This document shows, in pieces, positions 18,889 through 52,706 of a DNA stretch of 64,000 nt. Position numbers and translations under genes: made by a program. Position 1 is the stretch's first letter. Every line of letters begins with the position of its first letter. The notes below the pieces were generated by a model that was not told the origin of the DNA, did no database searches, and saw only the letters and a program-made list of their open reading frames with translations. Location of the stretch: the NCBI GenBank assembly GCA_028280285.1, contig JANQMA010000013.1, forward strand, positions 5,355 to 69,354, in the 5' to 3' direction. This stretch comes from Candidatus Omnitrophota bacterium (lineage in GTDB: Bacteria > Omnitrophota > Gorgyraeia > Zapsychrales > Zapsychraceae).

Positions 18889-19662
18889 TCAGCCTAAGCG
18901 GAAGGCTTCATTGACACTTTTCAAAATCTCTGCCGGGTTAATATATTCAATTAGAGTTGTGACATTTGTTTTTTGGGAAACAGTTTGTAAAATTTGTTTT
19001 GCTTGCAAGGACGACTTATCAGGCGTATAAAGCACGCAGTTTATTTTAGCTGTTTTGGCCATTTGATAAAGACGCAACACCAGCAAATCTCCTGGAATAT
19101 CATCGAGGTTAAGCGCAACAAGCGCTATATCCGGCTGAAGGCCTATCATCTCCTCTATCGCCTCTATTCCGGAAGCAGAAGTACGGACGGCATAACCGTC
19201 GTTTTTAAACATCGCTTCAATATCTTCAAGCACATTCGCATCACTTTCAACAATAAAGACATCCTTCCCCACTTTGACCTTGCCTGCATCCCGGTCTTGA
19301 AAAACAGCCTTAATCTCATCTAAAATTTGTTGCGGGCTATAAGGTTTTGCAATAAAACCGGCTACATTAAGCTCCATAAACATTTTCTCCATATCAGCCC
19401 TGCCGGTTGAAACAAATATGGGATACTTCGGTTGCTCATCATCACAAATCTTTTCATAAAACTCAACGCCGCCCATGTTTGGCATATTAATATCAAGAAT
19501 AATTAGATCCGGGATTTCCGCTTCGGCCACTTCAAGACCTTTAAGCCCATCATTAGCCATACTGACATGAAAGCCGTTTTTTGTCAAAAATGCCTGAAGC
19601 GTTTGGCAAACGTCTTTTTCATCATCAATAATTAAAATTTTCTGAGCCATAAAATACCTCAC
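18889..19662 (-). CDS. Response regulator with two tandem receiver domains (second one degenerate)
   Basis: REC1 ILIIDDEKDV...DLIILDINMPNMGG...AKP; REC2 VFIVESDANV...DIALVALNLDD; no output domain. Confidence 0.75.
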   Translation of the reverse strand: MRYFMAQKILIIDDEKDVCQTLQAFLTKNGFHVSMANDGLKGLEVAEAEIPDLIILDINMPNMGGVEFYEKICDDEQPKYPIFVSTGRADMEKMFMELNVAGFIAKPYSPQQILDEIKAVFQDRDAGKVKVGKDVFIVESDANVLEDIEAMFKNDGYAVRTSASGIEAIEEMIGLQPDIALVALNLDDIPGDLLVLRLYQMAKTAKINCVLYTPDKSSLQAKQILQTVSQKTNVTTLIEYINPAEILKSVNEAFRLG

Positions 19663-20674: not shown

Positions 20675-21127
20675 TTAGTCATCGATGCTGATATCATTGG
20701 GAAAGGCCTTACCTTTACCTGTCTCACAATATTCCTTGAGGCTGAGCATAAAAACAGCCCACTTTGTATTGCAGTGCGCAAAAAAATCAGATTCTTCCGC
20801 CCATCCTGATTGTGCAAACAAAACTTCAGTTTTACCGTCGGCTTCTTCCAAATCAAAGGTCGTAATAGTACCTTTCCATTCCTCTGGGCCTTCCACACAT
20901 TTCCATTTGATAAACTCAGGCGTTACCTCCAAAACTTCCATACCCGGACCACTTTCAGGAAACTTAAAGGTTAATGTTTCCCCCTCCAAGCTTTCCCCCA
21001 CAACGTTTTCTGTCCACCACCCTTTAAGACCGTCGGTAGTCGCAACGGCATCAAAAACTTTCTCCATTGGTGTATTGATTTTTATTTTATGTACTATGTC
21101 TGACATCTTTTGCCCTTTCTTTTTCAA
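20675..21127 (-). CDS. SRPBCC (Bet v1/AHSA1-like) domain protein
   Basis: 150 aa; the pattern (KVFDAVATTDGLKGWW...) matches the AHSA1/START-like superfamily. This is a fold-level call only. Confidence 0.55.
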   Translation of the reverse strand: MKKKGQKMSDIVHKIKINTPMEKVFDAVATTDGLKGWWTENVVGESLEGETLTFKFPESGPGMEVLEVTPEFIKWKCVEGPEEWKGTITTFDLEEADGKTEVLFAQSGWAEESDFFAHCNTKWAVFMLSLKEYCETGKGKAFPNDISIDD

Positions 21128-21140: not shown

Positions 21141-22817
21141 CTAAACTTTTGTTTGTTTTGGAAGTTTGATTGTAAATGTTGTACCTTCTCCTTCCACTGA
21201 TTCTACACTCAATTCACCTCCATGTTTTTGAATGATTTCATAACTGATACTTAATCCCAATCCTGTTCCCTCCCCAACAGGTTTTGTGGTAAAAAAAGGA
21301 TCGAAAATCTTATCTAATTTATCTTTGGGAATACCGATGCCGTTATCACTTAAACGAATACTCACATCATGCTCATCCTCTAAAGTTTCGATAATAATAT
21401 TTCCTTTTTCTTTCATGGCTTGATAGGCATTGATCAACAAATTTAAAATAACCTGTCCTAACTTTTGGACATTGCATTTAACGGGACTTGTGGTGTTATA
21501 TTTTTTAATAAGTTCGGCCTTGCCTGTCACCTCACTGGTCACAAGACTAAGCACTCCTTCAATAACCTCTTTAACCACTACATATTCCATTTCTCCTTTA
21601 TCTTCCCGGGCAAATCCGCGTAAATCGAGCACAATCTTTTTAACACGCTCAAGCCCAACCTTGGTCTCATCAATCAATACATTCATATCTTTTGTGATTG
21701 TATCAAAATTCGTCTCCTTTATATATGTTTTAATTTCTTTTAACCGGGTCTTGGCTTCAGAAATTTGATCAGCCTCAATCAGTTGTATTAATTCCATTGT
21801 CTTTTGTTGGACTTCATTAAAAATTTGACAATACTCCTCTAAAATCTGAATATTGTTAAAAACAAATCCGACTGGATTATTGATCTCATGCGCAACCCCG
21901 GCGGCCAATTGTCCGATGGATGCCATTTTCTCCGATTGAATCAATTTTGATTGCGCTATCTGTAACTGCCGGTTTTTTTTAAGCAAATCGTGATGGGCCT
22001 GTTCAATCTGAATGATCTTCGATCTTAATGTATAAACCATTTTACTAATAGACTCTGCCAACGTTCCCATTTCATCAGGCCTATCACGAAGCGATTTATC
22101 CACTTCTATTTTAAGATCTCCGTCGGCTATTTTATGCGCCAAAACCGATAGCATAACAACCGGTTGAGTAATCTTCCCGGACATAATCACAGCAAAAATA
22201 ATGCAGCCGAAAATAATACAAAAAATAAGCGGTACTCCAATAAACAAAGCCAACCTATTATTGCTATCGATTGTCTTTTGAAGCATTGTGGCATGATTAA
22301 GCTCAGAGACAATTAAAGCCTCAACACTTTCTTCTACAGAGCGCTTAATCTGATTGGCCTCTTCATAGTATTGAGAAAGTGCAATCGAACTGCCTTGTTG
22401 CACATCCTCAATTCCTTTATCACACTTAGCAATCAGATCATCGACAGTTTTTTTCGTTTTCTGATAGGCCATTTTACTTTTATAATCAACAATCGTCCCT
22501 TCCAGTTTTCTAAGAAGCTCCTTAAGCTCCTTTGTCTTTTGCCGGTATTCATTGCGGAAATTCACATTATGAATATTTTTAGCCGAAAAATAATAGGCCA
22601 AAATAGTATCCGAAACACTATTTAAAATCCTATGCTGCATATCTAAATTGCGGGTAATTTGTCGATAAGTCTGAAATATTTTGAAATGATATAACGCGGT
22701 AACGGCAATACCCGCCGTCATGGCCATGACAATAATCAAAAAGGCGATCACTAAGGTCTTGCGGATATGCGCTGATCTTAAATAACTTTTGGGTTTTTTG
22801 ACTTGGTTTTCAAGCAC
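21141..22817 (-). CDS. Sensor histidine kinase (TM-sensor-TM-HAMP-HisKA-HATPase_c)
   Basis: Two transmembrane helices flank a periplasmic region of about 150 aa. H-box [13 protein letters not shown]; G-boxes DNGIGI and GTGLGLS. Confidence 0.85.
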
Positions 22818-22933: not shown

Positions 22934-25900
22934 TTATAGCATAAGAGCTTGTTCAAGTGACTCTTCATGTCTGACATGCATACGATTCTTTTGGCCGTCA
23001 TTGAGGCCCAAGAGTTGCGGCAGGTTATTGATAGGCGTGATTTGAAGGACTTGTGGAATCAAGCCGGGGATTTCAATACTTTGCAGCTGGGCCGGATCAA
23101 TAGCAAAATCCAAATCAACACCAACCCCTTGGCTCTCTAATTCAAGGAAATCAGGGTTAAAGTCAATACCACCTTGTTTAAGATCTGAAATAGTAGCCTC
23201 ATCATTATGGGCCTTCGTCGGTGAACGGACAGCTATTTCAGGATATGGACTATCTTGTAGGTCCTTTTCAGTAACTTGTGGTAATCTTATTTCTATTTCG
23301 GTTCCAGTATTTTTATCTGATTGAATACTTAATTTTCCGCCATTTTTACTCACATCAAGATCAAGCGCTGCTAATCCCATGCCCGTTGCCTGCCCAAAAG
23401 AAACACGATACCAATTGCCATCCTCATCTTGAAAATCAGTTTCTTTATTATAAGAATAATGCAACACATTCTCAATGTCATCTGTGTCCATTCCGATTCC
23501 ATTATCTTTAATCTTAACAACTACTTCACTTGTTTTTTCATCAAAGGAGGCAGATAAACGCACCTTTCCTCTAACATGACTCCCTCCGTGTTTTTTGACA
23601 CGATCAGGATAAACGGCATTGAAACTGACATATTCTCCAGTTTCTTCAAAACCATCATTAATTTTTTTTAGCTTTTGTGCAGCAACAGCAAATTTACCAT
23701 TTCTTGTCGCCTGGATCAACGACGCTCTAAATCGTTTAGGGTGTGTTAAAATTGTTAACTTTTCCTCATCTTGAATATTAACTTCAATTTCCTCTACAGC
23801 ATCTGAACCGAGAAGTGACTCCATAGAATCAAAATCTCTGTTTGTGTGTACTATCTTATTTTTTGTGGATCTTAAAATATCTGCCAAGTTCACATGAGAA
23901 AGAATGAGACCATGACGTGTCCTTTCATCAATTGTCAGGGCTCTCATACGATCATATCGCTCCCCGATAAATCCACTCAGCCAATCAATTTTAGCCAAAA
24001 TATCTGAAACCTTTTTAAGGGTTCTCGGGTCGTCACTTAAATCAAACGAATCGCGCACACTATCCGTACTAGCCGCCTCAAAAGATTTTTTAAATGAAGG
24101 AAACCCTTCACTATTCGTAACATCTTCAGGTAACCCTTCTATCATTTTAGGCGTGATAACAGCTTTGATAAACCGCCTTAGTGCTTTCGCAGCAACCTCC
24201 TCATCACCTTTTCCAAAATGTTTTTTTCCATTTCGCAGATGCCTGTTAAATCGCCCACGATTAATATTATTGATAACCCAGTCTAAATTAGCCATTTTAC
24301 TTAGAGCAAAATCCGTTCCGACAATATCATCAAACTCCCCCCACAAAATACGCATTTGTCTGAAAATTTCCAGCATATCCTGCTGTAAGTAGATCGCGAG
24401 TGTCGCTTTTTCTAAAATACCCCCTTTGTGTGTAATTTCATAATCGTGCAAATAATCTGCATATGTTGCCGGATAGTATCTGCGCTTGATTAATTCCTCA
24501 TAAGCTGGCAAAGGCTGTTTGGACATATATTGAATCATAGCCCCGCCTGCAGTCTGCACCATTTGAAAAAATCGATCTAAACCATTCTTGCGCGCACTAC
24601 CGACTGTGCCGCCGCCAATAATAGCGATTTTTTTGCCTTTTTGACTATCCATAAACAAAAGAACCTTATCAATAAGAAGCGTATCGAACCTTCCCGTTGC
24701 AATTTCTTCATTAATCCGGTCTCTTGGGAAAGGTGGCACGACCTCTCCATTTTTCGCTATGAACTCTTCAAATAACACACGATTAAAAAAATCGATTCCC
24801 GCTTGAGGCACATTTACATACATAGCCGGCAAAAAGCTGTCTCCCTTCAGACCTATATACTCCTTTTTTTGATCTCGCTTATTAACCCCCGAAGGCCCAT
24901 TAAGAAGTCCGAAATTCAGATCCTTAATATTTTCTATATGCTCCCAAATAGCCTCAGGAGAAACCATATGGAATTTCCAATTATTTTCGACTTGTTCGCT
25001 AGGTCTGGCAATTCTAAAACTTGTTTCTACTAAATCATTCGGCGCAATCTTCTTGTCTTTAAATACCAGTGATTTCGGAAAATTTAACTTACTCCTGACA
25101 TCAGGATTTTTAATAAAAGCATCAATCGCGTGTTGTAAAAATTTGTCGCGATCACCTTCGTTTTTTACCCTAAAATCGATATTGCGCACAAATGGCGCTG
25201 AGCCTTCAACAGCATCCAATGCTTTATATAAAATAATCGCCGGCTGCCCGCCTAGAGGAAGATATTTCATGGTTGGTAAAGAACGCAAGTTTTGATACAT
25301 TAGAAACAATTTTTCTTTAATGCTCTTGTCACTTTTGCCATTTAACCAAGCGAACTCCAAAACATTCATATGCTCCTCAGCTTCCTTCATTTCCTTGGCC
25401 ATGACATAACCCATAACAGCGGGGGTGTCCTCATCTAAGCCCATTGAAGCATCGCGCCGATGGGCCGTTCCCATAGCATCTATAACATGTAAAACAGAAT
25501 GTTGAAGCAGTTTACGACGAAACTCCATATGCTTATCATAGGCATCCTCTAATTTATCAAGCCCCTTATAATAAACGGTAAAAAAATGAACAAGGGCACG
25601 ATATTGCTGAGTAAGATCGTTTGAGTCAAAATATTCAATATATTTCTCAAATGTTGAAGGCGCCAAATGCCTGACATGTCGAGGGATGTTTTCATTCCAC
25701 CTGTAGATATCGTTAAAAGCTCCTAAAACAAAACTTTGCGTCGATCTGATTTGATGCTCAAAATTAGAATTACTTTGCAGAATATTTTCATATATGTTAG
25801 TGAAAATTTTTATTCTATCCAGATTAAGCATATCTGATGGTAATGCTGCCCGGGCTTCTAATATATTTTTTTCAAACTCCTCTAGAGATTTTTCTAAGAT

Positions 25901-28900
25901 TTGCTCTTCCTCAATAAAACGTATATCTTCTCCCATAACAAGCTCGCCATTTTGCATTTCATTATGCATGAAATCTGCTATTTGATATGGTGCATGAACG
26001 CCTTCGAAAAAATGAACCTTTACTTCTTTACCCATCAACTCACTTAGCACCTTTTGCGCAAAAGGAGCAATAGGCCTATTTGTGTATTTTTCAAAATATT
26101 TCTTTTTAATCTCATCATATACGCGTCGCTTCTCCTCGAATCCTTCAGATTCGAACTCTTTAATCAATCTTTCATTTCTTTCTATTTCACCCAATACGTA
26201 TTCATAATGAGCACTCTCAATTCCCTTTTCCTTCATTTCTTTTGATATCTTTGTACGGTGGTTTTCAGCTTTTTGAGGATTTATATTTTCATTTTCCAAC
26301 GCCGTCTTTCTTTTATTTAATACCTTCCGCCTCTTTTGCAACATCGGCAAATAATCACGCATCTCTTTATTAATTTCATCTAAAGGCCTCCCATTATGAG
26401 AAATAACAAAAGCTTTGGCTCCGGCTTCCAGTGCCTGTTTAATTGTGGGTAAGGCAGCCATAAAACGCGCATCAGCATCAATTTTCCCGTTTTTCGCAAC
26501 ACCATTCAAATCGAGACGAATAGTAATAATCTTTCCTTCGATCACAATATTAGGAACATTTTTAAGCTCTAACGCCCTTAAGAGCTCATACAATGTCTTT
26601 TGCTCAAAAATATCTGAAATAGGCGTGGCACGCACATCTTCGCCAATATAGGCATCGATATAGATCTTTTCAATTTGCGCCTGAAGTTTTTTTACTTTAA
26701 GCAACCTTTTACTTGATTTTTCTAAGGACGACCAAGCACCATCTATTGCATCATTGTATCTTTTTCGAGCCTTTTTAAGTTGCCTCAGCAGCCCTCTTAC
26801 CTTACTTGTACCATTTAAAGCGACAAGCTGCTCTTCGCTTAAGGCTTCATTCAATTTATTGCGTTGCTGCAACTGTTCTTGCGTTAATTCATAAATATCA
26901 GATTCATAAACATTAGCCCGTTTTAATCGGTCTCTTAAAATGTCAATCGCCAAATTTCTCTCCGTCTCTTGAACATGCTCATCCGCCGTTAATTCTACAT
27001 ACTTTTTATTTTTCGCCTTGTCTGTATATTTTTGAAAGTAGACGCCATCCGCTGGACTAACAACCCGATACCCTTTTCTTTTAATCGTATCGGTAGCACC
27101 ATTAAAAATTCGGTAATCAATATGAAAAGGATAGCGCCCATGCTTGTGGCCGACGTGCTTGCCCGCCACCCCTTCTTCAGCCAAAATAGCATCAATTTCA
27201 TATGGCACGATCCAGGGCATATCGTTTGGATTAAAGGCACTTTTCCCATGCAAAGGTTTTCCCAATAATTTATTGCGCATATGCCATAAAGCTAAATTGT
27301 GACGCTCTTTAAGAGAAAATTGTTTTTTATAAAATTTAACTTCTATATCTTCAAGAGAATACCCCTCTTCGTCTTCCCTTAATTGAACAAGAGGTAAGGC
27401 CATTTTGTACCACTCATTAAATTTACTCACAAAACTATCAGGAATTTCATTCAGTGAATTATATTTTCCAAGCTCTTCGGCCAACTCTCTTTGAATTCTT
27501 AAAACATTCTCAATGGCTATCCGGTCATCCGGCTCATTAACATGTTTAGCCAAATCGCCATACACACTCTCCGTTGAAAACTCATGCGTATCTAAGATAA
27601 ACCGGGCAATTTCCAAAAGATTGATTTTGTTTCTATATTCTTCTTCATTCTCCGTTTTTTCAGGTTGTTTAAATTCCTTATTAAAGACAGCCGACATAAA
27701 ATCAAGTTCCTTGTTGCCGTGATTATAGTGTACTTTGAGCAAATCACGTGTTTCTTCATCATTAGCCATGACATGCAACTTTTGTAATGTGCGAAAGCTT
27801 CGAAAAATGGTTTCCGCCCTTTTTTCTTCAAACCTTGCTCTTTCTACCGGATCCTCAGTTATTTTATCTAAAGGGTAGTTATCCGGAATGGTAATATTAT
27901 CCCCATCCATAATAACTTCTGTTGGCAGACTCCCTTCTTGCTTTGCCATTTTTTGATCTTCTTCCAATATGTTACGCCGCACATGATTTAATACACCACG
28001 GGTAGGACGATACAAACTATGCCCATCTGAAAAAATAAACACCTCGCGAGCTTCGCCAGGACTAACTTGACTTATAACGCGATTAAAATCCTCTTCCATT
28101 TGTGGATGTTTAAAGCGAGGTTTATGCAATGATTGCCCGTTGGCATTACGCAATGTGACATATTTACGCGCCATTTTTTCACGATGGGCTGGAAGCGGCG
28201 GCATAACAACAGCATCATCACTCCGTTCATCTTTTTTCATCTGATAGCGCCCGGAAACCCGCATAAACTGATTGCTCAGTATATTGCGCGACAATTGGAC
28301 CGGCTCAAGGACGGCCGAATCATACGTACTGTGAGAAAGGCCGATGCCACCGGAGAAATATTTACGTGGCATGATTTGTTGGGAAGCAGGGTCGTACTCT
28401 TCTTTGATATAATCGTAAACGCCTTTGCGATAGGCTTGCAGATACTTTTGGTAAACCTCTTCTTTGGAATTTGGCGCGCCGCTTTCTAAGCCTTGGACCT
28501 TATTTTGGTCAGCGTATTTAGCGGTTAAAATTGAACTTTTAAGCTTGTCTTTATACCAAACCGCTAAGATAAACGAATGATAGATTTGACGTAATGCAGC
28601 GAAATGTTTGCCGCGATTAACCTCCTCTTCGATGATAGGCAAAATAACATCTTTCATCACATCTGTTGAAATCTGTGCAATTTTGGATGCGTCTAACTTG
28701 GAAGGATCATGACGCGTAGAATAATCTTCATGGGCATGAAAATAGGCAAAATAATCTTCTTCGGTCATTACCTTTAAATGGCTATAGGTAATAAAAGCCT
28801 TATTCCTATCTTCATAAATCTTGGCTGTCTCCGGTACGATCCAAATTTTGTTGTACGTATTTAATGGAATATCTGCCAAGCCGTGTTGTTGTTCAGCTCT

Positions 28901-29392
28901 TTGCCGGACTTTGTTCCAAAATTTTTGCCCTAATTCGCTTTCGGGGTAAGTTAAAGACGCACTTAATTGCTTTAAGAGATAATCTTGAAGCAACATATTA
29001 CGTCCAAACTCGGTTACTTCAAGCGTCTCGGTTATAATCCTGTCGTCCTCATATGGCGACAGGTTAACCCAGAGCTCTTCTTCGGGGACAGTTAAAGCGG
29101 CTAGAAAATATTTAATTAACTGTTCGGATTCTTTTGAAACATCAAGCTGCTTAAGATTTTCATCCCCAAGATTAAGAATAAAATCAAAAGCAAAGGGTTC
29201 GTTTGGATTTATAATAATTCCATTTAAGACAGGCGGATTATACGGTTGGCTGACTGAAACAAAAACCCCGGGGGCAGGAACAAATACCTCTTGAGCCGCA
29301 GCATAAGAAGCGAATATGGTTTCAAATAAAAATACCCCGGCTATAAATAAAGATAAAACTTGTTTAGAAATCCGTAAGCCCGGCATACCCAT
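22934..29392 (-). CDS. Giant secreted multidomain protein (about 2150 aa): shared N-terminal module, insertion-split phosphoglycerate-kinase-like fold, C-terminal GHKL ATPase domain, shared C-terminal tail
   Basis: Start reassigned to the internal [34 protein letters not shown] (signal peptide). The ORF-track start at 29443 would overlap the upstream giant gene by 80 nt. PGK-like motifs: [80 protein letters not shown]. GHKL motifs: KDNGIGMD and GQATGMGLA. Confidence 0.7.
   Translation of the reverse strand: [2152 protein letters not shown]
23279..23626 (-). other. GHKL/HATPase_c-like ATP-binding domain at the C-terminus of the giant ORF
   Basis: D-x-G-x-G ([10 protein letters not shown]) and G-x-G-x-G-L ([11 protein letters not shown]) boxes, ending in a [10 protein letters not shown] strand. 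Confidence 0.6.
24494..26566 (-). other. Phosphoglycerate-kinase-like fold embedded in the giant ORF (residues about 960-1650), interrupted by coiled-coil insertions of about 90-150 aa
   Basis: The order and spacing of the PGK signature blocks are preserved: R-x-D-x-N / ALPTI / SHxGRP; then SxAP...L.GKEV...RF..EE; then DAxGTAHR; then the IIGGG and TGGG loops. Confidence 0.6.
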
Positions 29393-32300
29393 CGGATATC
29401 TCACTTTCTCTAGTAGCAAGGTTAATTTTATGATTGGCTTCATACTCCTCGGATCTGTATCCTAATAATTCATAAATAGCCTCCTCATCATAAACTTCAT
29501 CTTTTGTTGTGCGGATCGGCGTCTGTTTAAAATCTTGTGTATTAAGCCCCAGCAGTTGCGGAAGATTAACAGGTGTAATATTTTGAATCACCGGAATAAA
29601 CCCTTTAAGATCAAGATAAATATCCGCCGGCTGCTGTGGTAAAGGCAGCGGCACCCCCTTACCATCACGCTTGATTTGCCATTCAAAGAGATCAGGGTTT
29701 AGGTTAATCCCGCCAAGATCGTCTTCTTGCTTTTGCATTGCCGCCTCATCAGCAGCTTCCTGCCCATATTCTTCTGCTGCCTGTGCGGCCATTTGTTCCA
29801 AACGCGCTTCTCTACGTAACGCTGCCAACTGTGCATTAAGCGGAATGTAAATGGTTTGCTCTTCTGTGCTTTGTTGAAAGGTAATATTCGGATCTTGCGA
29901 ATTAGTATCAACAATGTTCAACAAACTTTCAACATCGCCAAATACTTGATTGATAATATCTATACCGTCTTTTTCCAAGAGTGCTTCTCTCCGCTTAAAA
30001 TCATCGGTTAAATCAAGCCACCACGAGGCAACCCATGGCTCATAATACGGCCTGGATTTGATTTTAATTTGTTCCTTGGAATAAGCGTCCAATATGATTG
30101 TCTTGCGATCATCCGTGTTCGTTTTCATAACCTGGAGCATGCTTGACACAAACTCTCTGAACTCTTCAAGAGTAAGTTTTTCATAAAGATCTTTCCAGGT
30201 AACCTTAAAACTTTTCAAGGCCTGATAAATATCCCGTTCAACCCACACATTTTTATTGTCAGAAAGATTTTCTGCTTTAGCCGCTTCAATTAACGCCGCA
30301 AAACCGTGCTCATAATCAAAATTAGGCAAATCCGAATCCGCCTGCTCCTGAAGCATGGTTGCCCCCATCCTTCGGTCTAATGGATCAGCAGACTTAAGCA
30401 GCTCCCTTGGATCGCCTTCAGCTTCGATTCCTAGACGTAAGAAAATATCATCAACAGTAGCCTGATAATTTTCAAAATCCGGAATCGGCTGCCCTGGCTT
30501 TGAAAAATCATACGGAGCAAAGGCAGCAGCAAACTCGACTTCAGGAACATACGTAATCCCGTTGACCTCTATATGCTCGGAATAACCACTTGTTCTCGTT
30601 AAAAGCAACCGCAAGTCACGCTTAATTTCATTATCGAGAAATAGGTCAATTCTGACAGGAGGATTGCTAAAGTCCATATACCTCGGCCCAAGAATCGCGG
30701 CCTGTTTTACAATCTTAGGCGCCTGGTTGATAAACGGTTTAATAAACGCGTGTAAAATACGCGGATCGTTCGGCTCAACATAACTTTTTGACTCCCTGTC
30801 TCTTTCTTCTGGGTTCAACATATAAATTAATGCCTCAAACGCACTAACAGCAACCAGATCATTAGGCGACTCTGTTCTTTTAAATAAATAATCTAATAAT
30901 TCATTAGCATCAACATCCCTTTTAACAAGCAGCTCGATTTTCTCTCTAAAAATTTCGGGGTTAGTTTCAGAGTCTAAGCTATTAAGCAAATTTGTATCGA
31001 TAATATTTACTCCATCCGGCAAAACATCGAATCTATAATCTTTACGTTGTTTAATAAGCTCAACCCCCAGCATGCGCAGTTGATAATTAGGATGGTTTAT
31101 CATCTGTGCAATATCATCAATTGATCTTACATGAAGAAGAATTAACTCATTTAAGTCTCTAATCCTATCGATCCTTTGCCTATGCGGCCGGTCGCGGTTA
31201 ACATTGGCGCCTTCTTTTCCGACATTGCCATCCTGGCGGATTGTATCTCTCCTGCGCACTCCGCCCCCTCTTTCAAAATGCGTCATCCCTAAAGTTGCTT
31301 TATAACGTATATCCTGATTGCCCTCTTCTTCGTATTCCACTGCTTGGCCAACATTTGGAAAAAAGATATCATTCCATATCCTGAGTTTTTGATATAAAGC
31401 AGCCTTCCTGTTAACTACCGCCTCTCCTGATATACGCGCATCTGAATCATTTTCTAAATCATCGATTTCCCTTACAATCTTTTGAGCATAACCCAGAATC
31501 AAATCGAACATTTTGGTGCGTACTTCGACATTTTCATGTTCCGTTCCCTTATGCACAGCTTCTAGCATATCTCGTTCTTCTTGTGTATTATCAGCCAGCC
31601 ATGCCTTTTCCATAAGAATGGCAGCCGGTATATCCGCACGAGGATCAGTATCATCTGCTGTTCTACGACTGAGCACCTCTTTAGCCGGATTACCTTCCAT
31701 GGCCCCCAAAAGACCAAAAACCTCCTCACGAACAAATGATGGGAAATCTTTATGCGTTGCGCCAACTAAATCATCCGATAAAACACCACTTTTAAATGCA
31801 TCATTGACCATACGATCAAAACTAACCTCTTTATCATCTGCATTTAAAAAATTTCGCGCTATTGTTTCTTTTCGATCTTCATCTCGCACAATTGTATTCC
31901 ATAGATCGGCCGATATACGTAACTCTCTTTCAATATTAAGCAACTCCTCGCCCGCCAAAGGAGTCGGATATAAATTAATCAGTGATTCTGGATTAAGCAC
32001 AGCTAATTGTTTACGTAACTCTCTTCTAACATCTACATTAGCATTATTAAGTGCTTGTTCTCCTAGACGCTCATATCGCTCCAATAAATCTATGATGTAG
32101 GAATAAATATCCTGGCGTTGATCTTTAGCTGTTTTGGCCATCTGACTCAGCGCTCTGATATAACGGATTTGTTGGGGGGTTGCTTCAGGCCCTTTAGTTT
32201 GGGATGCCTTTATGACTCCTCTTTCTATAGCCTCAACATCTATTTTATTCGCAATCCAGTTGATTAAATCAATCGTCCGCCCCTCTACTGAAACATCCTT

Positions 32301-35300
32301 AAGCGTCCCTTCAAACTCAACAGGAGCTAAATTATACTGAAACGCATCATATATGGCGTCTCTGGCCGGCTTATCGAATGCATCTTGTCCCATTTTTTTA
32401 AATTCGCGGTCAATGAGATCTTTAAGACTGTTTGTTTCGCGTGTGGGTGGCTCCTGATTAAGCTTGCGTCTTACCTGGCCAAGCGCCTGAATAGCCTGCA
32501 TCTGTGCTGTTCCATATCTTGCAATACGGATATAAGTCAAAACTGTTTCGCGCTGTTTGCCATACTCAATATCTTTGGCACCGCTGCCGAAAAATACATC
32601 CGCCAAAACATTAAGCGCATCAACATCCCCCATAGCTCCTAACTGGCTAAAATGATGCGCAACATTGGAAAGCTCCCCGGAGGCGATGTCAGCAAAAGTA
32701 ATGCCTTTTGGTTGATACCCGTATCTCTTCAGCCCTCCACGAGCAATATCACGTGTAACAGGATCGTTATTTTGCGTATAGGAAAGAAGCATGACAATCC
32801 GTCTTTGCTTTTGCCGTTCTGTCATATCTGCGTGAGGCGGTTCAGCCATCATCGATGCCATAAACTGATTAAAACTGCGTGCATCAAGACTTCTGATCCT
32901 CTTGCGTGCCTCAAGCAATTTTCTTTTGTTAACCCCTAACTCGGAAAAAACGATATCGTAAAACAGTTTAAACCCAACCGATCTTGGATCAATAAATTCG
33001 GTTGAAATATAACTTGCCAGTAAATGTTCCGCCCCCGCATTAAAAAGCGCCGAATAATAGGTCTGATCCTCCATGCGGTCTAACGCCAGACCAAAAGAAT
33101 TAAGATACAGTAAGCTCTCTTTATCTTGTAGCCCCTTAGCTCTAGCTTGCGCCAATTGATAAATAGCATTTTCAATTATGCTTGTTGTGCCACGCAAGAC
33201 CCGCATAGAAAGAGTTGGGTTATATTCACGGTGTTTTTTCACCAGTGCTTTTTGTGATAAACGCCAATCATTTTCCGTATGAAGCCGGTAGGCCTGTGCG
33301 GCCCTTTCTCTAACCAGTGGATCGGAGTCCCACATCGCATCAATCAAAGCCTGTTTGGCTACCGCCCCACGTACATACGCCAGACGCGTCACCGCCTCGA
33401 TTCTATACTGAACCTTTTCATGTAGCGTTGCAATGCGGGCTAACAATTCCCGCGCCGGTTTACGTACCGGCCTTGCCAATAAACGTGCAGTGCTTACGGC
33501 AAGCCCATAATTTAAATTATCGAGTTCTAACTCATATTCACCTTCAACCCGCACCCAGGGATTGCTCGGAAGGCCTGGCGCAGCAATCGGTCTGGTTATG
33601 TCAATCGTAAAATCTCTCCCTGAAAAGATGAATGATTCGCGGTCTAGATCTGCCCCGCGCAAATTGAGTTCAAAACGCAGACGCTCATGAGCTCTGTCCG
33701 ATAAGGTAGCAACCGTTGCATATCTAGATAATGTTTTTCTATCTCGGTCATAAATCCAATAGGAATCATTCGACATAAACAAAAGCGCGTCGAATGCAGC
33801 CTCAACCTCAATATCATTGTCTGCTCTATTATTGAGCAAAAACCGTTCAATGCCCTCAAAATTAGCCGCTCTTTTACCCTTTATAAATAAAAACGACTCA
33901 CTACGAAGCCCTGAAATCCTTAAGGCCTGAGCAACGGCAAAAGGACTATTACTTTTCTCAATGGTTTCGATCAGAAGCCTGCTGGTATTTTTAGTACGCG
34001 AGCGTTCTAACCATTTACTCACAATCCTTTTTATTGTCTCATTTGTCCCCCCAAGCAAATCAATCAGTCCGCGGACAATGCTTTCGTCTAAATCATTTTT
34101 TGGAAAGAGCTCTGTATATCTTTCAAGCCAGGCATCAGCATACTCCGCAGATTGCGGCCGGTCGCGCATGGCATTGACCATAACAATCGCCGCTTGCCTG
34201 CCTTTTTCTCTGGCCGCATCAGGATTCGCTTTATATGCTTCTTGAAATAATCTATCTAATTCAATTAACTCTTTCAGCGTTTTAGAATCATTTTTTGTCC
34301 GTAAATACTCCTCGATATTATCTTGTGCAATCAAGCTGTCGACATCTGTTATTTCTTCTCTCTGCTGGTAAATTTCCAAATCCCTTGGAGCCGCTTCAAG
34401 AGCCGAACCTCCCGCTACAGCCGTCGCGACAGCAAGCTTGGCGGCCACCGCACCACTTTTTGCGCTTTTTAACAAGCCTGTTATTGCTGCAGCATCAGAA
34501 GCACCGATGAGCTCATTAGCTCTGCTTTCAAGCTCCTTCTTATTATATTTATAGTCTCCTTTATCTTCTCCCTGCTCAGGAAGCTTAATAAAAACGTCTT
34601 CTGTCAGTTTTTGGAACATATAAATAATCAAGTTCTCATAAATATAATAAAAGTCATCCCCGGCCAGCTCCGATAAAAAGACTCGTGTTTTCCCTTTATC
34701 TAAACGGAAATTCGCAAGCCCCATTTTTTCAAACGGTATTTTGGACGCCACTTCCTGCATATGTCGGACTTTTTTTAAATCACTTTCCTCAACATCCTCA
34801 AAATCTTCTTTTTTGAGACTATCCGGAGATTCAATGTCAAAAACTTCAAGCAATAGACGCCCGGCCTCTTCGGTGCCCACATTAACCAGGGCCCTGGCCG
34901 CCATAAGCGTATAAATCATTTTTTCGAAATCAAAAAATGCAATTGTTCCGTTTGGCAAAAGATACTTGCGATAAATCGGCACAAGCCAATTTAAATTGCT
35001 TATCTGTGGGCTTTTGGACTGACGAAAGGATTCATGATAATTTTTGTACTTGCCCGGCGTTTGCGTAAAATAATCGGCAAAATATTGATAAACGGTCTCG
35101 ACTCTACTTGTCTTATTGTCAATTTTCCTGTCAACCACACTCCAAAGCTCTTCGCTTCTTTTATCGATTAATTCATCAAATTTTTCCCGTATGAGTTTAT
35201 CATTATCTTGATCTTTTTTCTTAAACAATCCCCTGATGCTGCGTAATATCCTCTCGACTTCCGCATCTCTCTGTTCACTTAAAACAGGCTCTCTTAGCTC

Positions 35301-38300
35301 CGTTCTTCTCACACCCACACGAGCCGATCTATCCCTTCGCGACCTAATATTAGCCACAAGGTTGTCCTCTTTTGTTTTTTTACGGTTAAAATATCTATTA
35401 ACCAAAATCTTTTGATCTTGCAGTTTTTTAATTGTTTTAAGAAGACTGAGCAGCCACCTACTTTTTTTATCTTTCGCTTTAACAATATTCTCAATAATTT
35501 TTTTTGGTAGTTTTTTTGGATAATTCGCTTCAATTTTTTCAATAAATTTTCGTTTGGCAGCACCACTAAAGCTCTTGCGATAACCCCAAACGAGAACTCC
35601 ACTTAAAAGAAGCACCGTGATCATAGTAGGCACAGTATTTTTAAAAACCTCTTCATTATATGCTTTAGCCTTTAGCCAGCTTTGAAATACAGGATCCCCG
35701 CTGGCGTCCGGGTACACAGAAACAAAGGCCAATAATTCCCCATCTGTTTTAAACTGTTCAGGCTCACTTTTGGCAATCGCCAATATATCCGCATAAAACT
35801 CTTTGATCCTTTGCTCACTGTTTGCCTCTAGGCTATGTAACAGTGTGGTCACATCTTCAATCATGGGTGTCAGTCCCATAGGCTGAATATGCATGTGAAG
35901 ACGAGTAAGGGCTTTACGCTCTTCAACCGGAAGCCTTATGTACGCCTTAAGGTACGCAGCATGCATGTCCTCTTTTTTGACATCTGTATTCTTAAAATAA
36001 TACTCCTTCGCCATCCACAAATAATCATTAAGATCCTCATTGTCGGTTCTTGGCGCTTTCTCAGCCAAAACATAATTTGTTTTAAAAGCCTCTCTGCGCA
36101 CACGAGGCGATTCATGTAAAGTGAACTCAAGCACTAAAGTAAATAACGTTTTATCTCCCAGCTGTTTGATAGCCTCTAAAACATAAAAAGCAAAGGTATT
36201 TCTTCTATCAAGAACATCACGCTTGACATCGGATTGCCGATAAAACCTGAGGATCCCGGAAAGACTGTCTTGCGCTGCAACAGGAAGCGGAACGCGATAC
36301 AACCCGATAATAGAAAAATAGGCAATAAGTATGGCAACGGCAATGCCAACACCTATCATGGTAATTCTTTGTATCGAATCAAGGGTTAAGTCCCAACTCC
36401 TATCCCCTTCGTTGCGTTCATTTATTTTGTTAAATTTTTTGTTTGTTTTTACTTTACTTCTCCAATCACGAAACCTTTTCCATTGCCGTCCGGGCCATTG
36501 CCATAAGGTTGCTAAAGCAGATAGCATAGCATTATCCTTAGTTGGCGGCTTCTCATGCAGACTTTCATCGATATCGCGTAAAATATTGACTAATTGTAAT
36601 TGTTGAGAGCGCTCAGGTACTTCTACAATTGTGGCAATAGTTATATCTTGATCAGTTTTTTTTGATTGAGCCTCCGACTCAGTATTAGCCTGTCCTTTTT
36701 GTTTTTTATCAAAATCAATCTGGTCAATTATCCCTTGTATCTCGGTCGCCCCCCCTGTCACGATCATAAAAATAGTCTTTTCCGATTCCATCATCCTAAG
36801 TAATTGCCCGGAGACAGTATCTTGAGAGCTTATTTGATTTTTTTTCTTAAAAACCTGCAGCTGTGCGAGTGTTGTTGCACGTTGAGGATAAATGTATTCA
36901 ATACGTTCAATCCCAAATCGGTTAAACACTTCCGCTGTATATTGAACGGCATTGGCTGGAATAACTAATAATGTCTTGGACCCATCAGCAATGCCGTTAT
37001 AATGACCTTCTGTAAACCCCTTTTCTTTATAAAACGTTTCATGAAATGCAAATTGATTTTTAACCTTTTGCCAAATCGCCAACTCCTCAAAATAGCGCGC
37101 TTTATCTTCCACATCACCTTCTATAGCTTGAGGGATTACATCGACAAATCTTTGAATATCCATTGAATTGACGCGCATTCGTAACGCAAGGAGTGCAACT
37201 GCCTTTCTTTCTTCATAGGTAAGTGAACCATAATAATCCGTCAAGATTTCATAAACCAGGCCATTTAAAAAGTCTCTTAATTCGGTATCAGTCTCTAAAT
37301 CAACTGCGGATTTGCCCGTTTGCTGTTCATACTGTTGCAGCTCCTCGGCCGTGGACTCCCATCGGGTAAGATTGGTGAAGATATCATTGAGCTCTGTATC
37401 AAGTATCATATTCTGAGCGGCTAGATACTCCATAAGCGGCATAAGTGCAGGAACAACAATAGACTTAAGCTGTACCCCGACAGCTTCCACACCTTCTTTT
37501 TGTTTATCCAGTGTTTGATTTTTTTGCAGAACATTAACCAAATTGATAAGATATCCAGACATTGACAAATTATCCGCCGCCCCCTCAATAATGAGATTTT
37601 CAACAAGCTCATGCGGAAGGCGCGCCTTGTACCTGCCTGTCTTTTCTTCAAAACTCAAATCCCTTGAATCCTGTGGAACAAGAAATTCCCCCAGGCTTGG
37701 GGTGCCCAATACAATAAAGGCTGTCATAAGCGTTGCATTTGCTAATGTAAGGCGTATAGAAGCCCCGTACACAAACCGATAAAGCCAACTTTTTTCTTCA
37801 ACCACCGGGCGAGATCTGACATAAAAAGCCCCTAAAAAAAGTACAATTAACGCTCCAATGACAACGGAAACTGTTCCTGCCCTTATATCTTCTTTAAGGG
37901 TTTTAATTATTTTGAAAAAAAACACGTCTGTATTATTGGACATCCACCTCCCGTAACTGTTTTCAAACCAGTACATCGAACTTATCGCTTTATATACAAA
38001 TCCGTCTCTTAATGCAGCTGTTCTACTTTGGTTTTTAATATTTTGCTCCTCAGCGGCTATGCGCTGCCTTGTCAGTCGTTTAAAATTCTCTAACCTTTCT
38101 TCGTCACTTAAGCCATTGTCAGGTTTATTTTTGAGCAATTTATCTGAAAATACCCACATTTCATCTTTGACTGCCTTTCTAAGATCATTGGAAGGCCGCC
38201 GCAATAATTCCACGGTTTTTTGTAAAGCCTTTGGGTCAACCCCTCTGGCATACTCCTGTCTAAAAGCAAGATTAGAAATAACATTCTTCACAACAGGATC

Positions 38301-40049
38301 CGTCAGATCTGATACCGATTCGTCACGCGCAATCATTGGATGAAAAGCATCCATCGCCGACTGAAAATATTCCGTTTGCTCCTCTGTAAAGTCATCATAA
38401 GTTAGATTATTGTATAAAGTAATCGACTTTTGTCTTTTCTCAAGAAGCTCCGCATAAATATCAACTTCTTCATATTGAGGTGGATTGGTAATAGCCTTAT
38501 GCGGGTAAGCTATAAAAGAAAGCGCACCCCAAGCACTAGCTAGCGCAACTAACACACTTCCGACAAGATAAGCAGGTGTTAATGCAAATCGTTTTACCTT
38601 TCTTGGCCTATCTACAACCGCATTATCAACTTCGTTTTTTTCTTCAGGCGCCGTAACTTCAATAACTTCCTGTATCGGCTCAACATCTAGATCAGCCTTT
38701 TTGATTTCCTGAAATTTTTCTTCAGCAGTTTTATTCTCAGGTGCATCGTTACTTTGCCAACTCATACGCACCTGTGTATTAATATCCAGCGATGCTGTTC
38801 CTTTTTTGCCCCCATTATCTTTTGTCACCTCAACCAGGCGGGTGTTGACGCGCGAAACATTTTCATCGCTTTGGGCAAAGCTAAATTTTTGCCCCCAATT
38901 CAAATTATCAAAATCCGTTTCAATCCGGACATTGGTATCCCCAAACGCAGGATTGGCCAGCGCCTGCAAATCAAGCCCGCCAGAGAAGTATTTCCGTGCC
39001 ACAATTTCCTGTTTTTGCGGATTGTACTCTTCCCTGATCAAATCAAAGACGCCTTGCTTAAACCCTTCAAGGTAGTGATCATAAATCTTCCGGCTGATTT
39101 GCTTGTCTTCTGTATCAACGCCTTCTGTTTTGCCGCGATCCACATAAAGCTGACTTAATAAACTCGTCTTAAGCTTTTTCTTATACCAGCCGGCAAGGAC
39201 CAAAGAATGAACAATCTGTCTTAATGACGCGAATGCCTCGCCATGGTTGATCTCATGCTCAATTTCCGGAATAATCACTGCGCGGACAATATCAGAAATG
39301 TTGGATGCCGCCGGCTCATCGCTAAGCCGGGCATGATTGGTATTTTTATCCGAGACCACATAATCTTCTTCCAGCATGGCCTTAAGCGTGCATTCAACCA
39401 CATAGGCGCTTGTGCCGTCCTCATAGATCGTTGCTTTATCGGGGACAATCCACACCTTATTAAAGGCATTGACCGGCATATTTTGATCACCGTATTGAGC
39501 GTGAATGCGTTCGTTGATACGCTCCCAAAGTTTGGCGCCAATCGAATCGGTTGTGTCATCCGGATACATCAAAGAGGCTGTCATCTGCTTAAGGACATAA
39601 TCCTGAGCCAGCACATCGCGCCCCATCAATGTATCGCCAAAAGAATCGGCAATGATGCGATCAGGCTCATCGGGCGAAAGGTTGACCCATAACTCGTTTT
39701 CGGGAATGGTTAGTGAGGCAAGAAAGTATTTGATTAACTTTTTGGCTTCGGCTTGAAAGCCTTGATCATTATTAAAATTAGTATCTCCATGATCAATAAT
39801 AAAATCAAGCTCCAAAGGATTTTCCGGATGGACGATCACGCCACGCATGAACATCGGTGTCATCGGGGCAGACTGAGTCATCATTTCCCCGACAGGAGGC
39901 AGTTTTAACACATGCGCTGGTTGTGGAACAGGAAGGCTTTGGGCCTGGGCATACTCAGGGCCAATAATTGACTGCACACCAAAGGTAAGCAGCAAAATAT
40001 AAACAATCCCCTTAAAAGAAATACTTTTTTTGTGATTTTGGAATAACAT
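29364..40049 (-). CDS. Giant (3561 aa) signal-peptide-bearing, multi-pass membrane alpha-solenoid protein; shares N-terminal module and C-terminal tail with the downstream giant ORF
   Basis: Signal peptide MLFQNHKKSISFKGIVYILLLTFGVQSIIG. At least 5 hydrophobic transmembrane-like helices are scattered through the protein (e.g. LVGSVLVALASAWGALSFIAY, TVSVVIGALIVLFLGAFYV, MIGVGIAVAILIAYFSIIGLY, TMITVLLLSGVLVWGY). It carries HEAT/PBS-type repeats (DSDPLVRERAAQAY) and is predominantly helical. No catalytic motif recognised. Confidence 0.7.
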   Translation of the reverse strand: MLFQNHKKSISFKGIVYILLLTFGVQSIIGPEYAQAQSLPVPQPAHVLKLPPVGEMMTQSAPMTPMFMRGVIVHPENPLELDFIIDHGDTNFNNDQGFQAEAKKLIKYFLASLTIPENELWVNLSPDEPDRIIADSFGDTLMGRDVLAQDYVLKQMTASLMYPDDTTDSIGAKLWERINERIHAQYGDQNMPVNAFNKVWIVPDKATIYEDGTSAYVVECTLKAMLEEDYVVSDKNTNHARLSDEPAASNISDIVRAVIIPEIEHEINHGEAFASLRQIVHSLVLAGWYKKKLKTSLLSQLYVDRGKTEGVDTEDKQISRKIYDHYLEGFKQGVFDLIREEYNPQKQEIVARKYFSGGLDLQALANPAFGDTNVRIETDFDNLNWGQKFSFAQSDENVSRVNTRLVEVTKDNGGKKGTASLDINTQVRMSWQSNDAPENKTAEEKFQEIKKADLDVEPIQEVIEVTAPEEKNEVDNAVVDRPRKVKRFALTPAYLVGSVLVALASAWGALSFIAYPHKAITNPPQYEEVDIYAELLEKRQKSITLYNNLTYDDFTEEQTEYFQSAMDAFHPMIARDESVSDLTDPVVKNVISNLAFRQEYARGVDPKALQKTVELLRRPSNDLRKAVKDEMWVFSDKLLKNKPDNGLSDEERLENFKRLTRQRIAAEEQNIKNQSRTAALRDGFVYKAISSMYWFENSYGRWMSNNTDVFFFKIIKTLKEDIRAGTVSVVIGALIVLFLGAFYVRSRPVVEEKSWLYRFVYGASIRLTLANATLMTAFIVLGTPSLGEFLVPQDSRDLSFEEKTGRYKARLPHELVENLIIEGAADNLSMSGYLINLVNVLQKNQTLDKQKEGVEAVGVQLKSIVVPALMPLMEYLAAQNMILDTELNDIFTNLTRWESTAEELQQYEQQTGKSAVDLETDTELRDFLNGLVYEILTDYYGSLTYEERKAVALLALRMRVNSMDIQRFVDVIPQAIEGDVEDKARYFEELAIWQKVKNQFAFHETFYKEKGFTEGHYNGIADGSKTLLVIPANAVQYTAEVFNRFGIERIEYIYPQRATTLAQLQVFKKKNQISSQDTVSGQLLRMMESEKTIFMIVTGGATEIQGIIDQIDFDKKQKGQANTESEAQSKKTDQDITIATIVEVPERSQQLQLVNILRDIDESLHEKPPTKDNAMLSALATLWQWPGRQWKRFRDWRSKVKTNKKFNKINERNEGDRSWDLTLDSIQRITMIGVGIAVAILIAYFSIIGLYRVPLPVAAQDSLSGILRFYRQSDVKRDVLDRRNTFAFYVLEAIKQLGDKTLFTLVLEFTLHESPRVRREAFKTNYVLAEKAPRTDNEDLNDYLWMAKEYYFKNTDVKKEDMHAAYLKAYIRLPVEERKALTRLHMHIQPMGLTPMIEDVTTLLHSLEANSEQRIKEFYADILAIAKSEPEQFKTDGELLAFVSVYPDASGDPVFQSWLKAKAYNEEVFKNTVPTMITVLLLSGVLVWGYRKSFSGAAKRKFIEKIEANYPKKLPKKIIENIVKAKDKKSRWLLSLLKTIKKLQDQKILVNRYFNRKKTKEDNLVANIRSRRDRSARVGVRRTELREPVLSEQRDAEVERILRSIRGLFKKKDQDNDKLIREKFDELIDKRSEELWSVVDRKIDNKTSRVETVYQYFADYFTQTPGKYKNYHESFRQSKSPQISNLNWLVPIYRKYLLPNGTIAFFDFEKMIYTLMAARALVNVGTEEAGRLLLEVFDIESPDSLKKEDFEDVEESDLKKVRHMQEVASKIPFEKMGLANFRLDKGKTRVFLSELAGDDFYYIYENLIIYMFQKLTEDVFIKLPEQGEDKGDYKYNKKELESRANELIGASDAAAITGLLKSAKSGAVAAKLAVATAVAGGSALEAAPRDLEIYQQREEITDVDSLIAQDNIEEYLRTKNDSKTLKELIELDRLFQEAYKANPDAAREKGRQAAIVMVNAMRDRPQSAEYADAWLERYTELFPKNDLDESIVRGLIDLLGGTNETIKRIVSKWLERSRTKNTSRLLIETIEKSNSPFAVAQALRISGLRSESFLFIKGKRAANFEGIERFLLNNRADNDIEVEAAFDALLFMSNDSYWIYDRDRKTLSRYATVATLSDRAHERLRFELNLRGADLDRESFIFSGRDFTIDITRPIAAPGLPSNPWVRVEGEYELELDNLNYGLAVSTARLLARPVRKPARELLARIATLHEKVQYRIEAVTRLAYVRGAVAKQALIDAMWDSDPLVRERAAQAYRLHTENDWRLSQKALVKKHREYNPTLSMRVLRGTTSIIENAIYQLAQARAKGLQDKESLLYLNSFGLALDRMEDQTYYSALFNAGAEHLLASYISTEFIDPRSVGFKLFYDIVFSELGVNKRKLLEARKRIRSLDARSFNQFMASMMAEPPHADMTERQKQRRIVMLLSYTQNNDPVTRDIARGGLKRYGYQPKGITFADIASGELSNVAHHFSQLGAMGDVDALNVLADVFFGSGAKDIEYGKQRETVLTYIRIARYGTAQMQAIQALGQVRRKLNQEPPTRETNSLKDLIDREFKKMGQDAFDKPARDAIYDAFQYNLAPVEFEGTLKDVSVEGRTIDLINWIANKIDVEAIERGVIKASQTKGPEATPQQIRYIRALSQMAKTAKDQRQDIYSYIIDLLERYERLGEQALNNANVDVRRELRKQLAVLNPESLINLYPTPLAGEELLNIERELRISADLWNTIVRDEDRKETIARNFLNADDKEVSFDRMVNDAFKSGVLSDDLVGATHKDFPSFVREEVFGLLGAMEGNPAKEVLSRRTADDTDPRADIPAAILMEKAWLADNTQEERDMLEAVHKGTEHENVEVRTKMFDLILGYAQKIVREIDDLENDSDARISGEAVVNRKAALYQKLRIWNDIFFPNVGQAVEYEEEGNQDIRYKATLGMTHFERGGGVRRRDTIRQDGNVGKEGANVNRDRPHRQRIDRIRDLNELILLHVRSIDDIAQMINHPNYQLRMLGVELIKQRKDYRFDVLPDGVNIIDTNLLNSLDSETNPEIFREKIELLVKRDVDANELLDYLFKRTESPNDLVAVSAFEALIYMLNPEERDRESKSYVEPNDPRILHAFIKPFINQAPKIVKQAAILGPRYMDFSNPPVRIDLFLDNEIKRDLRLLLTRTSGYSEHIEVNGITYVPEVEFAAAFAPYDFSKPGQPIPDFENYQATVDDIFLRLGIEAEGDPRELLKSADPLDRRMGATMLQEQADSDLPNFDYEHGFAALIEAAKAENLSDNKNVWVERDIYQALKSFKVTWKDLYEKLTLEEFREFVSSMLQVMKTNTDDRKTIILDAYSKEQIKIKSRPYYEPWVASWWLDLTDDFKRREALLEKDGIDIINQVFGDVESLLNIVDTNSQDPNITFQQSTEEQTIYIPLNAQLAALRREARLEQMAAQAAEEYGQEAADEAAMQKQEDDLGGINLNPDLFEWQIKRDGKGVPLPLPQQPADIYLDLKGFIPVIQNITPVNLPQLLGLNTQDFKQTPIRTTKDEVYDEEAIYELLGYRSEEYEANHKINLATRESEISDGYAGLTDF

Positions 40050-48845: not shown

Positions 48846-48871
48846 TTTCTAACCTACCCCCGAACCCAACT

Positions 48872-52660: not shown

Positions 52661-52706
52661 TATATTTTCCTCGATTGATAACAGCTTTGATCGAATCATA
52701 TATTAT

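Follow-up and report, generated by a model that had tools for sequence, protein, structure and literature searches.

The sensor kinase cores of HK853, WalK/YycG, ZraS and KinB combine a catalytic (CA) fold, the N, G1, G2 and G3 boxes of the Bergerat-fold (GHKL) ATPases and a DHp helix alpha-2 that leads into the CA domain. Several kinase-like proteins have kept a CA domain without a functional acceptor histidine; these include DivL, in which tyrosine replaces the histidine, plant phytochromes, subfamily-2 ethylene receptors and the anti-sigma kinases SpoIIAB/RsbW, all of which belong to cytoplasmic signalling. The mitochondrial-type serine kinases PDK/BCKDK likewise form no phospho-histidine, place a helical region ahead of the GHKL domain and are tied to a metabolic enzyme. 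To our knowledge, none of the histidine-less kinase-like proteins is fused to phosphoglycerate kinase (PGK) or carried in a Sec-exported modular protein. In this study we examined a 64,000-nucleotide stretch of DNA (the window) from a Candidatus Omnitrophota bacterium (assembly GCA_028280285.1, contig JANQMA010000013.1, positions 5,355 to 69,354), in which an initial annotation had placed a histidine-kinase-type GHKL domain in one giant open reading frame (ORF) together with a PGK-like region and a signal peptide. We consider it probable that this domain is an ATP-binding, histidine-independent kinase or ATPase cargo domain in a predicted exported modular protein and not a two-component sensor.

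Omnitrophota are described as uncultured, ultra-small and probably host-dependent, and the function of their giant proteins as an open question (PMC10066038). West-Roberts et al. (2023, bioRxiv 10.1101/2023.11.21.568195) list HATPase_c as one of the commonest domains in the giant proteins of Omnitrophota, and a 2026 preprint counts it in 136 of 916 Omnitrophota long proteins, where it falls in a module with methyltransferases; its authors note a tension between the metabolic domains of these proteins and their predicted extracytoplasmic topology (10.64898/2026.06.07.730766). Tallies of HATPase_c in long proteins of this phylum are already available from these two preprints. The window protein resembles the reported giants in its phylum and in joining metabolic enzyme domains to an export signal (signal peptides or transmembrane helices in the giants), but at 2.2 thousand residues it is far shorter and has a signal peptide only, with no transmembrane helices. 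Term searches of these two preprints turned up no description of four features detailed below, namely the bracket of a constant N-terminal domain (N-domain) and a constant C-terminal tail (C-tail), the depletion of cysteine, the loss of the H-box and the PGK-helical-GHKL supermodule.

The feature, for which the initial annotation had named no strand, lies on the minus strand; the plus-strand frame across 23279-23626 is riddled with stops. The minus-strand translation of this interval starts with SFNAVYPDRVKKHGGSHVRGKVRLSAS and ends in NTGTEIEIRLP, and the whole of it (SFNAVYPDRVKKHGGSHVRGKVRLSASFDEKTSEVVVKIKDNGIGMD...NTGTEIEIRLP) corresponds to residues 1940-2055 of a 2169-residue ORF. The order within this ORF is signal peptide, family N-domain, a region without assignment, PGK-like region, helical region, GHKL domain and family C-tail. 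Pfam HATPase_c matched residues 1951-2056 (E 1.1e-9, 39.1 bits) above its gathering cut-off of 26.4, NCBIfam matches were limited to the C-terminal ends of many sensor kinases, and PDB sequence searches returned SrrB, YycG, CheA, KinB and HK853. Separate hidden Markov models (HMMs) of the CA and DHp domains were each built from 16 canonical kinases, with the two ordinary kinases of the window serving as positive controls for the DHp model. The CA model matched the 2169-residue protein at E 4.7e-24. Alignment by hhalign to 17 canonical DHp+CA cores gave a probability of 99.7% (E 5e-27); with default or stricter settings the alignment took in DHp alpha-2 and the whole CA domain, N-box included, without alpha-1. 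The AlphaFold2 (AF2) model has kinase CA topology, with a mean predicted local distance difference test (pLDDT) score of 61 and values of 70-90 over most of the CA part; the helices ahead of it are of low confidence (pLDDT <50 over long stretches). In the model, beta-hairpins are inserted into the GHKL domain at two points, behind the N-box helix and within the ATP lid. The best Foldseek matches were the full DHp+CA kinases WalK, HK853, ZraS and DivL (E ~1e-10, with 270-320 columns aligned; DivL as structure 4q20), while the best global match was PDK2 (query TM-score, TMq, 0.41-0.43 over 372-382 columns), a comparison that takes in the low-confidence helical part. The domain match is real and far above chance, and residues ~1847-2056 make up a GHKL ATP-binding domain of the histidine-kinase type that is complete, having N, G1, G2 and G3 boxes. 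Pfam, hhalign and Foldseek agree here with the initial annotation, which had called a Bergerat-fold ATPase of the histidine-kinase type, and the G1 (DNGIG) and G2 (GQATGMGL) boxes lie where it had put them. Its placement of the domain at the C-terminus holds only loosely, as 113 residues follow the domain, including a ~60-residue family tail.

The initial annotation had not reported an N-box. This element is present as RFRASLIQATRNGKFAV, where the stretch RNGKF carries Asn1915 and aligns to the NA of canonical N-boxes; it had been overlooked because a ~50-residue insertion parts it from G1 and because the Pfam alignment began at profile position 19. The databases searched contain only four copies of the PGK-helical-GHKL module, in the window protein (identical to P0001) and in P0121, P0004 and P0003. 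Mutual identity among these four is 21-26%, yet the residues of the N, G1, G2 and G3 boxes are invariant in their alignment (Asn1915; D1980/G1982/G1984; Y2012, F2016/G2017/G2021/G2023; G2047/T2048), and the ATP-contact residues are under selection. P0121 and P0002 represent one ortholog in two overlapping ORFs (666 and 1433 residues) at 2411-8651 of contig L083, and most likely reflect a sequencing frameshift rather than a real split gene (the contig is labelled 2x coverage). The order of PGK-like, helical and GHKL parts is constant in all four proteins, while the flanking regions differ. This fixed order despite differing flanks argues for functional coupling, and the three parts together form a conserved supermodule known from four Omnitrophota proteins. 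Additional copies of the helical and GHKL parts were sought by phmmer, by a search with a profile (A1) and by a metagenome scan. The exhaustive phmmer search of 1.84 billion representatives gave 51 matches at E<=1e-3, of which only P0121 was matched over its full length and P0004 in part; the A1 search returned 3 ordinary kinases, and the metagenome scan with the same profile gave 80 loci, all generic kinases matched only in the G1-G3 part. The module is therefore rare, which limits the alignment to four sequences.

The PGK-like unit was matched by Pfam PGK at E 6.7e-27 in three stretches, and it covers positions 5-391 of the 398 of T. maritima PGK in four stretches. Insertions of ~85 and ~130 residues split the unit, and its Mg-binding GGGD motif is altered to GGGT (GGGGT in P0121). 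Together with the sequence divergence of the module, this change leads to a first alternative, in which the GHKL domain would be a decayed remnant or pseudokinase that has lost the use of ATP and persists as a scaffold in a rapidly evolving modular protein. The single full-length relative recovered by phmmer, the lost H-box and the two insertions, of which one falls within the ATP lid, speak for it as well. The invariance of every nucleotide-binding box across four copies that are otherwise so dissimilar leads us instead to expect retained ATP binding, not decay, and we regard the remnant explanation as unlikely.

No phospho-acceptor site could be assigned to the domain. Pfam HisKA gave no match in the 2169-residue protein at E<=1, and the DHp HMM gave none at E<=10, whereas the two window kinases scored E 1e-21 to 1e-23 with the same model. 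The helical part alone was not significantly DHp-like (2.7% probability in hhalign). Under greedy settings, hhalign set Arg1756 opposite the phospho-acceptor histidine, a position at which the remaining copies have N, Q and H. In the four-copy alignment, no histidine is invariant in the 250 residues upstream of the GHKL domain. By these comparisons the domain has no H-box and no conserved acceptor histidine, as the initial annotation had proposed when it could not recognise an H-box. A degenerate H-box candidate (FKKSFEAASTDSVRD, with T for H), spotted by eye, was rejected: hhalign puts alpha-1 elsewhere, and does so only under greedy settings. CA domains of this orphan kind recur within the family to which the protein belongs, since all six HATPase_c-bearing members scanned were without HisKA and 11 of 12 were without any DHp signal beside the CA domain.

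Export of the protein is predicted from its N-terminus and from its composition. The signal peptide was judged by hydropathy, charge and the AxA motif. Residues 29-47 form the sole hydrophobic segment (Kyte-Doolittle, KD, score 1.9; the next best segment reaches 0.99), basic residues stand before the hydrophobic core, with none after it, and next comes a cleavage-type motif, AAA/QE (the slash marking the predicted cleavage site). The same layout, usually with AxA/Q, characterises the family, where a hydrophobic N-terminal core was found in 104 of 107 members and most members have no further hydrophobic segment. Exported proteins of bacteria without periplasmic disulfide formation are known to avoid cysteine. 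The window protein has no cysteine in its 2169 residues (P ~4e-12 at a background of 1.2%), and the 120 listed homologs have 0.088% cysteine in 250,706 residues, with 27 of the 120 free of it. Most other ORFs of the window, mainly of cytoplasmic type, contain about 0.5-3% cysteine, and its cohesin/He_PIG surface proteins likewise contain none. The signal-peptide layout and the cysteine depletion make export through Sec well supported as a prediction, in agreement with the signal peptide of the initial annotation, and the kinase core is predicted to lie off the cytoplasmic side.

A second alternative reads the N-terminal hydrophobic segment as an uncleaved anchor or a mis-call, so that the enzymes would be cytoplasmic and membrane-tethered and the GHKL domain would regulate PGK-based metabolism there. 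PGK and GHKL domains both need ATP or ADP, which are cytoplasmic molecules; the 2026 preprint favours the cytoplasmic face as the site of much of what Omnitrophota long proteins carry in HATPase_c and sugar-metabolism domains (10.64898/2026.06.07.730766), and our signal-peptide call was made by the three properties named above. The charge distribution around the hydrophobic core, the family-wide AxA/Q and a cysteine content like that of the window's surface proteins and unlike that of its cytoplasmic ones are at odds with this placement. So is synteny with surface-protein genes: the P0003 and P0004 genes adjoin genes for a pyrophosphatase, a ~300-residue ORF, an LTD/CotH protein, Porin_5 and LTD, and the same block stands in the window at 52707-62088. 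We hold a cytoplasmic location to be improbable.

The host protein belongs to a large family. A search with the whole protein returned at least 2,816 clusters, and those with a named source were all Omnitrophota or Omnitrophica except one; the family matches were confined to the first ~350 residues, at ~50% identity. Constant and variable parts were defined by segment-wise BLAST over the 120 listed homologs. The N-domain was found in all 120 of them and the ~60-residue C-tail in 116, while everything between the two varies. The C-tail occurs in a single copy that ends a median of 14.5 residues before the C-terminus, and no internal repeats of the N-domain or the C-tail were found inside family members. 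The N-domain, residues 401-958 and the C-tail had no match in Pfam or NCBIfam, and the AF2 model of the N-domain had no fold match in the PDB. Cargo among the listed members includes PGK, enolase, GAPDH, aldolase, phosphoglucomutase, glucose-6-phosphate isomerase and PPDK, and also UbiB plus M48 peptidase, methyltransferases, phosphatases and HATPase_c. Family loci numbered at least 575 in a genome scan; the best 80 of them were all in Omnitrophota-type metagenome-assembled genomes, with several paralogs per genome. By these comparisons the window protein is a member of a family built from a predicted Sec signal, a constant ~350-residue N-domain, a variable enzyme cargo and a constant ~60-residue C-tail. 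The two ATP-binding modules that the initial annotation had singled out as an unusual pairing are indeed rare, being found in four proteins, but they are less odd in a family that as a whole carries cytoplasm-type enzymes.

Proteins with constant ends around a variable enzymatic middle are known from other systems. Cargo of the type IX secretion system (T9SS) has a Sec signal and a C-terminal sorting domain, and MARTX toxins have constant N- and C-regions around variable effector domains. The resemblance is one of architecture only, in the constant ends, the variable enzymatic middle, the N-terminal Sec signal and the conserved extreme C-terminal element; no sequence or fold similarity of the family to T9SS cargo or MARTX was found. 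A tandem paralog of 3561 residues lies immediately upstream of the gene; its 3' end overlaps the first ATG of the 2169-residue ORF by 80 nt, and HEAT repeats are its sole Pfam match. The called N-terminus of another member, P0029, opens with a C-tail-like fragment, WQSIEIPGILLPIPMNLNL, ahead of its own signal peptide, which suggests that tandem family genes have been fused in ORF calls (compare the overlap in the window).

A third alternative is a very divergent but ordinary two-component sensor kinase, whose acceptor histidine would sit in an unrecognised DHp or HPt-like helix and whose partner would be a regulator such as that at 18889-19662. It draws on the Foldseek alignments, which run through full DHp+CA kinases, on the alpha-2-like helix that aligns to DHp, on the histidine of P0003 at the acceptor-aligned position and on response regulators downstream in the window and in L083. 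The silent DHp model, the acceptor position that reads R, N, Q or H with no invariant histidine upstream, and a kinase core predicted on the wrong side of the membrane count against it. The gene neighbourhoods do so too: the response regulators near the gene in the window and in L083 stand with their own kinases or alone, those of the window adjoining their own canonical kinases; the P0002/P0121 locus has no neighbouring kinase, and no two-component genes were found among the neighbours of P0003 and P0004. A connection with the canonical kinase and regulator next to the gene was considered and rejected, as the 418-residue protein encoded beside the ortholog shows no relationship to the window kinase and neither the P0003 nor the P0004 locus has two-component genes. 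We judge an ordinary sensor kinase very unlikely. That the domain is a GHL-type ATPase of the MutL, Hsp90, MORC or gyrase B class instead of the kinase class can be practically dismissed: HATPase_c_3 matched weakly, at E 0.0021 and with 18.5 bits against a cut-off of 25, and HtpG appeared at E 0.02-0.06 in a PDB profile search, while every strong match in sequence or fold is a histidine kinase, CheA or PDK/BCKDK and the GHKL domain is followed by a ~35-residue linker and the family tail, with no transducer-type domain.

We return to the GHKL domain as a probable histidine-independent kinase or ATPase. Sensor kinase cores are its best sequence, profile and fold matches, and it differs from them in having neither an H-box nor a conserved partner regulator, in its predicted extracytoplasmic location, in its two beta-hairpin insertions, including the conserved YRVxFG lid, and in its position downstream of a PGK-like unit. 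It shares with PDK/BCKDK the tie to a metabolic enzyme and a ~170-residue region, modelled as helical at low confidence, ahead of the GHKL domain, and differs from them in weak sequence similarity (E 0.04-0.3) and in the catalytic Glu. Of the histidine-less kinase-like proteins, DivL is among its top fold matches, and HATPase_c_2 had no Pfam match in the 2169-residue protein. The domain would bind Mg-ATP without histidine autophosphorylation and without signalling to a response regulator. It may phosphorylate Ser, Thr or Tyr on a partner in the manner of PDK/BCKDK and the anti-sigma kinases, or it may exert nucleotide-dependent control over the adjoining PGK-like unit. The protein would leave the cytoplasm through Sec, with the constant head and tail serving sorting or anchoring, and the ATP-dependent cargo would act at the cell surface or within a partner (host or prey) cell instead of in the cytoplasm of the producer. 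Since no ATP is expected beyond the cytoplasm, this cargo would probably work at the cell-cell interface or inside the partner cell. Speculatively, action in a partner cell fits the host-dependent lifestyle proposed for Omnitrophota (PMC10066038).

Several points weigh against this interpretation. An exported ATP-dependent domain requires a further step, for example delivery into another cell or a local source of ATP. The apparent want of a conserved histidine comes from a shallow alignment of four copies, and in P0003 alone a histidine does occupy the acceptor-aligned position. The PDK-type catalytic Glu, which we take to lie four residues ahead of the N-box Asn, is not conserved and reads Q, K, E or L in the four copies. 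Finally, the helical part of the AF2 model has long stretches of low pLDDT.

A broader proposal, which we advance tentatively and regard as rather doubtful, is that the constant N-domain and C-tail mark an as yet undescribed, Omnitrophota-specific export or delivery route, with a Sec signal and a C-terminal sorting element, for ATP-dependent cytoplasm-type enzymes that act in or on host or prey cells as metabolic effectors. The cargo of such a route would span whole stretches of glycolysis, UbiB-type kinases, methyltransferases and histidine-less kinase-like domains, and the PGK-GHKL supermodule would rewire the phospho-metabolism of the partner cell, or make ATP locally and use it. The compact 2.2-thousand-residue member described here displays the family grammar of signal peptide, constant head, enzyme cargo, constant tail and almost no cysteine, and thereby offers a concrete handle on the function of Omnitrophota giant proteins. 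If the export prediction is true, thousands of proteins would place ATP-dependent enzymes outside the producer's cytoplasm, which would suggest either that effectors are delivered into partner cells or that an extracytoplasmic phospho-metabolism has gone unrecognised. The module would also bring to two-component biology a conserved histidine-less CA domain that is physically coupled to a putatively ATP-generating, PGK-like enzyme.

Table 1 Features of the 2169-residue ORF and of other genes in the window (positions in the window; residue numbers of the 2169-residue ORF)
Feature	Position	Strand	Remarks
Whole ORF	22934..29443	-	2169 aa; database copy P0001 begins at Met18 (nt 29392)
Predicted Sec signal peptide, aa 18-50	29294..29392	-	MGMPGLRISKQ-VLSLFIAGVFLFETIFASY-AAA/QE; KD 1.9, sole hydrophobic segment in the protein
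Family-defining N-terminal domain, aa 51-400	28244..29293	-	~50% identity in 120/120 listed homologs
PGK-like region, aa ~959-1668	24440..26569	-	Alignment to T. maritima PGK
Helical region between PGK and GHKL, aa 1672-1846	23906..24430	-	Common only to P0121, P0004 and P0003 besides the window protein; no invariant histidine
Long helix, aa 1806-1835	23939..24028	-	Aligns with DHp helix alpha-2 of canonical histidine kinases; holds invariant Tyr1830
Complete histidine-kinase-type GHKL (Bergerat-fold) catalytic domain, aa 1847-2056	23276..23905	-	Pfam, AF2, Foldseek, profiles
N-box helix PKRFRASLIQATRNGKFAV	23684..23740	-	Asn1915 invariant in 4/4 copies
G1 box IKDNGIGMD	23486..23512	-	D1980, G1982, G1984 invariant
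ATP-lid hairpin with subfamily signature YRVxFG, then G2 box GQATGMGL	23366..23416	-	Y2012, F2016, G2017, G2021, G2023 invariant
G3 box NTGTEI	23294..23311	-	G2047, T2048 invariant
Family-conserved C-terminal tail, aa 2090-2150	22994..23176	-	Consensus GGIDlNP..ldLq...I.Gf.PVIinItP.tNLPllLGl
Tandem paralog, 3561 aa, 1 Cys, HEAT repeats	29364..40049	-	Same N-domain (43% identity) and C-tail (47% identity)
Pyrophosphatase	61459-62088	+	In syntenic block with 305-aa ORF, LTD-CotH, Porin_5, LTD
LTD + CotH-kinase protein, 1185 aa, 1 Cys	56836-60393	-	Another apparently extracytoplasmic ATP-dependent kinase
HAMP-HisKA-HATPase_c kinase	21141-22817	-	Complete canonical kinase beside the window gene
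Response regulator (receiver protein)	18889-19662	-	Near the window gene
GGDEF cyclase	17728-18849	-	Near the window gene
Receiver-HisKA-HATPase_c hybrid kinase	9238-10446	-	Ordinary signalling gene

Other genes of the window were noted in passing. An AHSA1-like protein (Activator of Hsp90 ATPase homolog, SRPBCC) is encoded at 20675-21127 on the minus strand, two genes downstream of the GHKL domain and just after the canonical kinase; its proximity is probably a coincidence. The minus strand of 40271-55334 encodes a run of cysteine-free giants of surface type, namely three cohesin or He_PIG/Big_9/cadherin-like proteins (1278, 1581 and 1275 residues) and a protein with five LTD domains and a dockerin; this region possibly specifies a cohesin-dockerin surface assembly. 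A 1113-residue ORF at 4983-8324 on the minus strand has no tryptophan and 2 cysteines and gave a weak coiled-coil-type Pfam match, TMF_TATA_bd, below the cut-off; it is followed by a SET-domain protein at 8354-8851. Among the window ORFs of at least 150 residues, 28 of 34 are on the minus strand, and five of the six on the plus strand are nested in longer minus-strand ORFs, the exception being the pyrophosphatase. GC skew is negative across the whole window (cumulative -4.4), as would fit a single replichore with co-oriented transcription.

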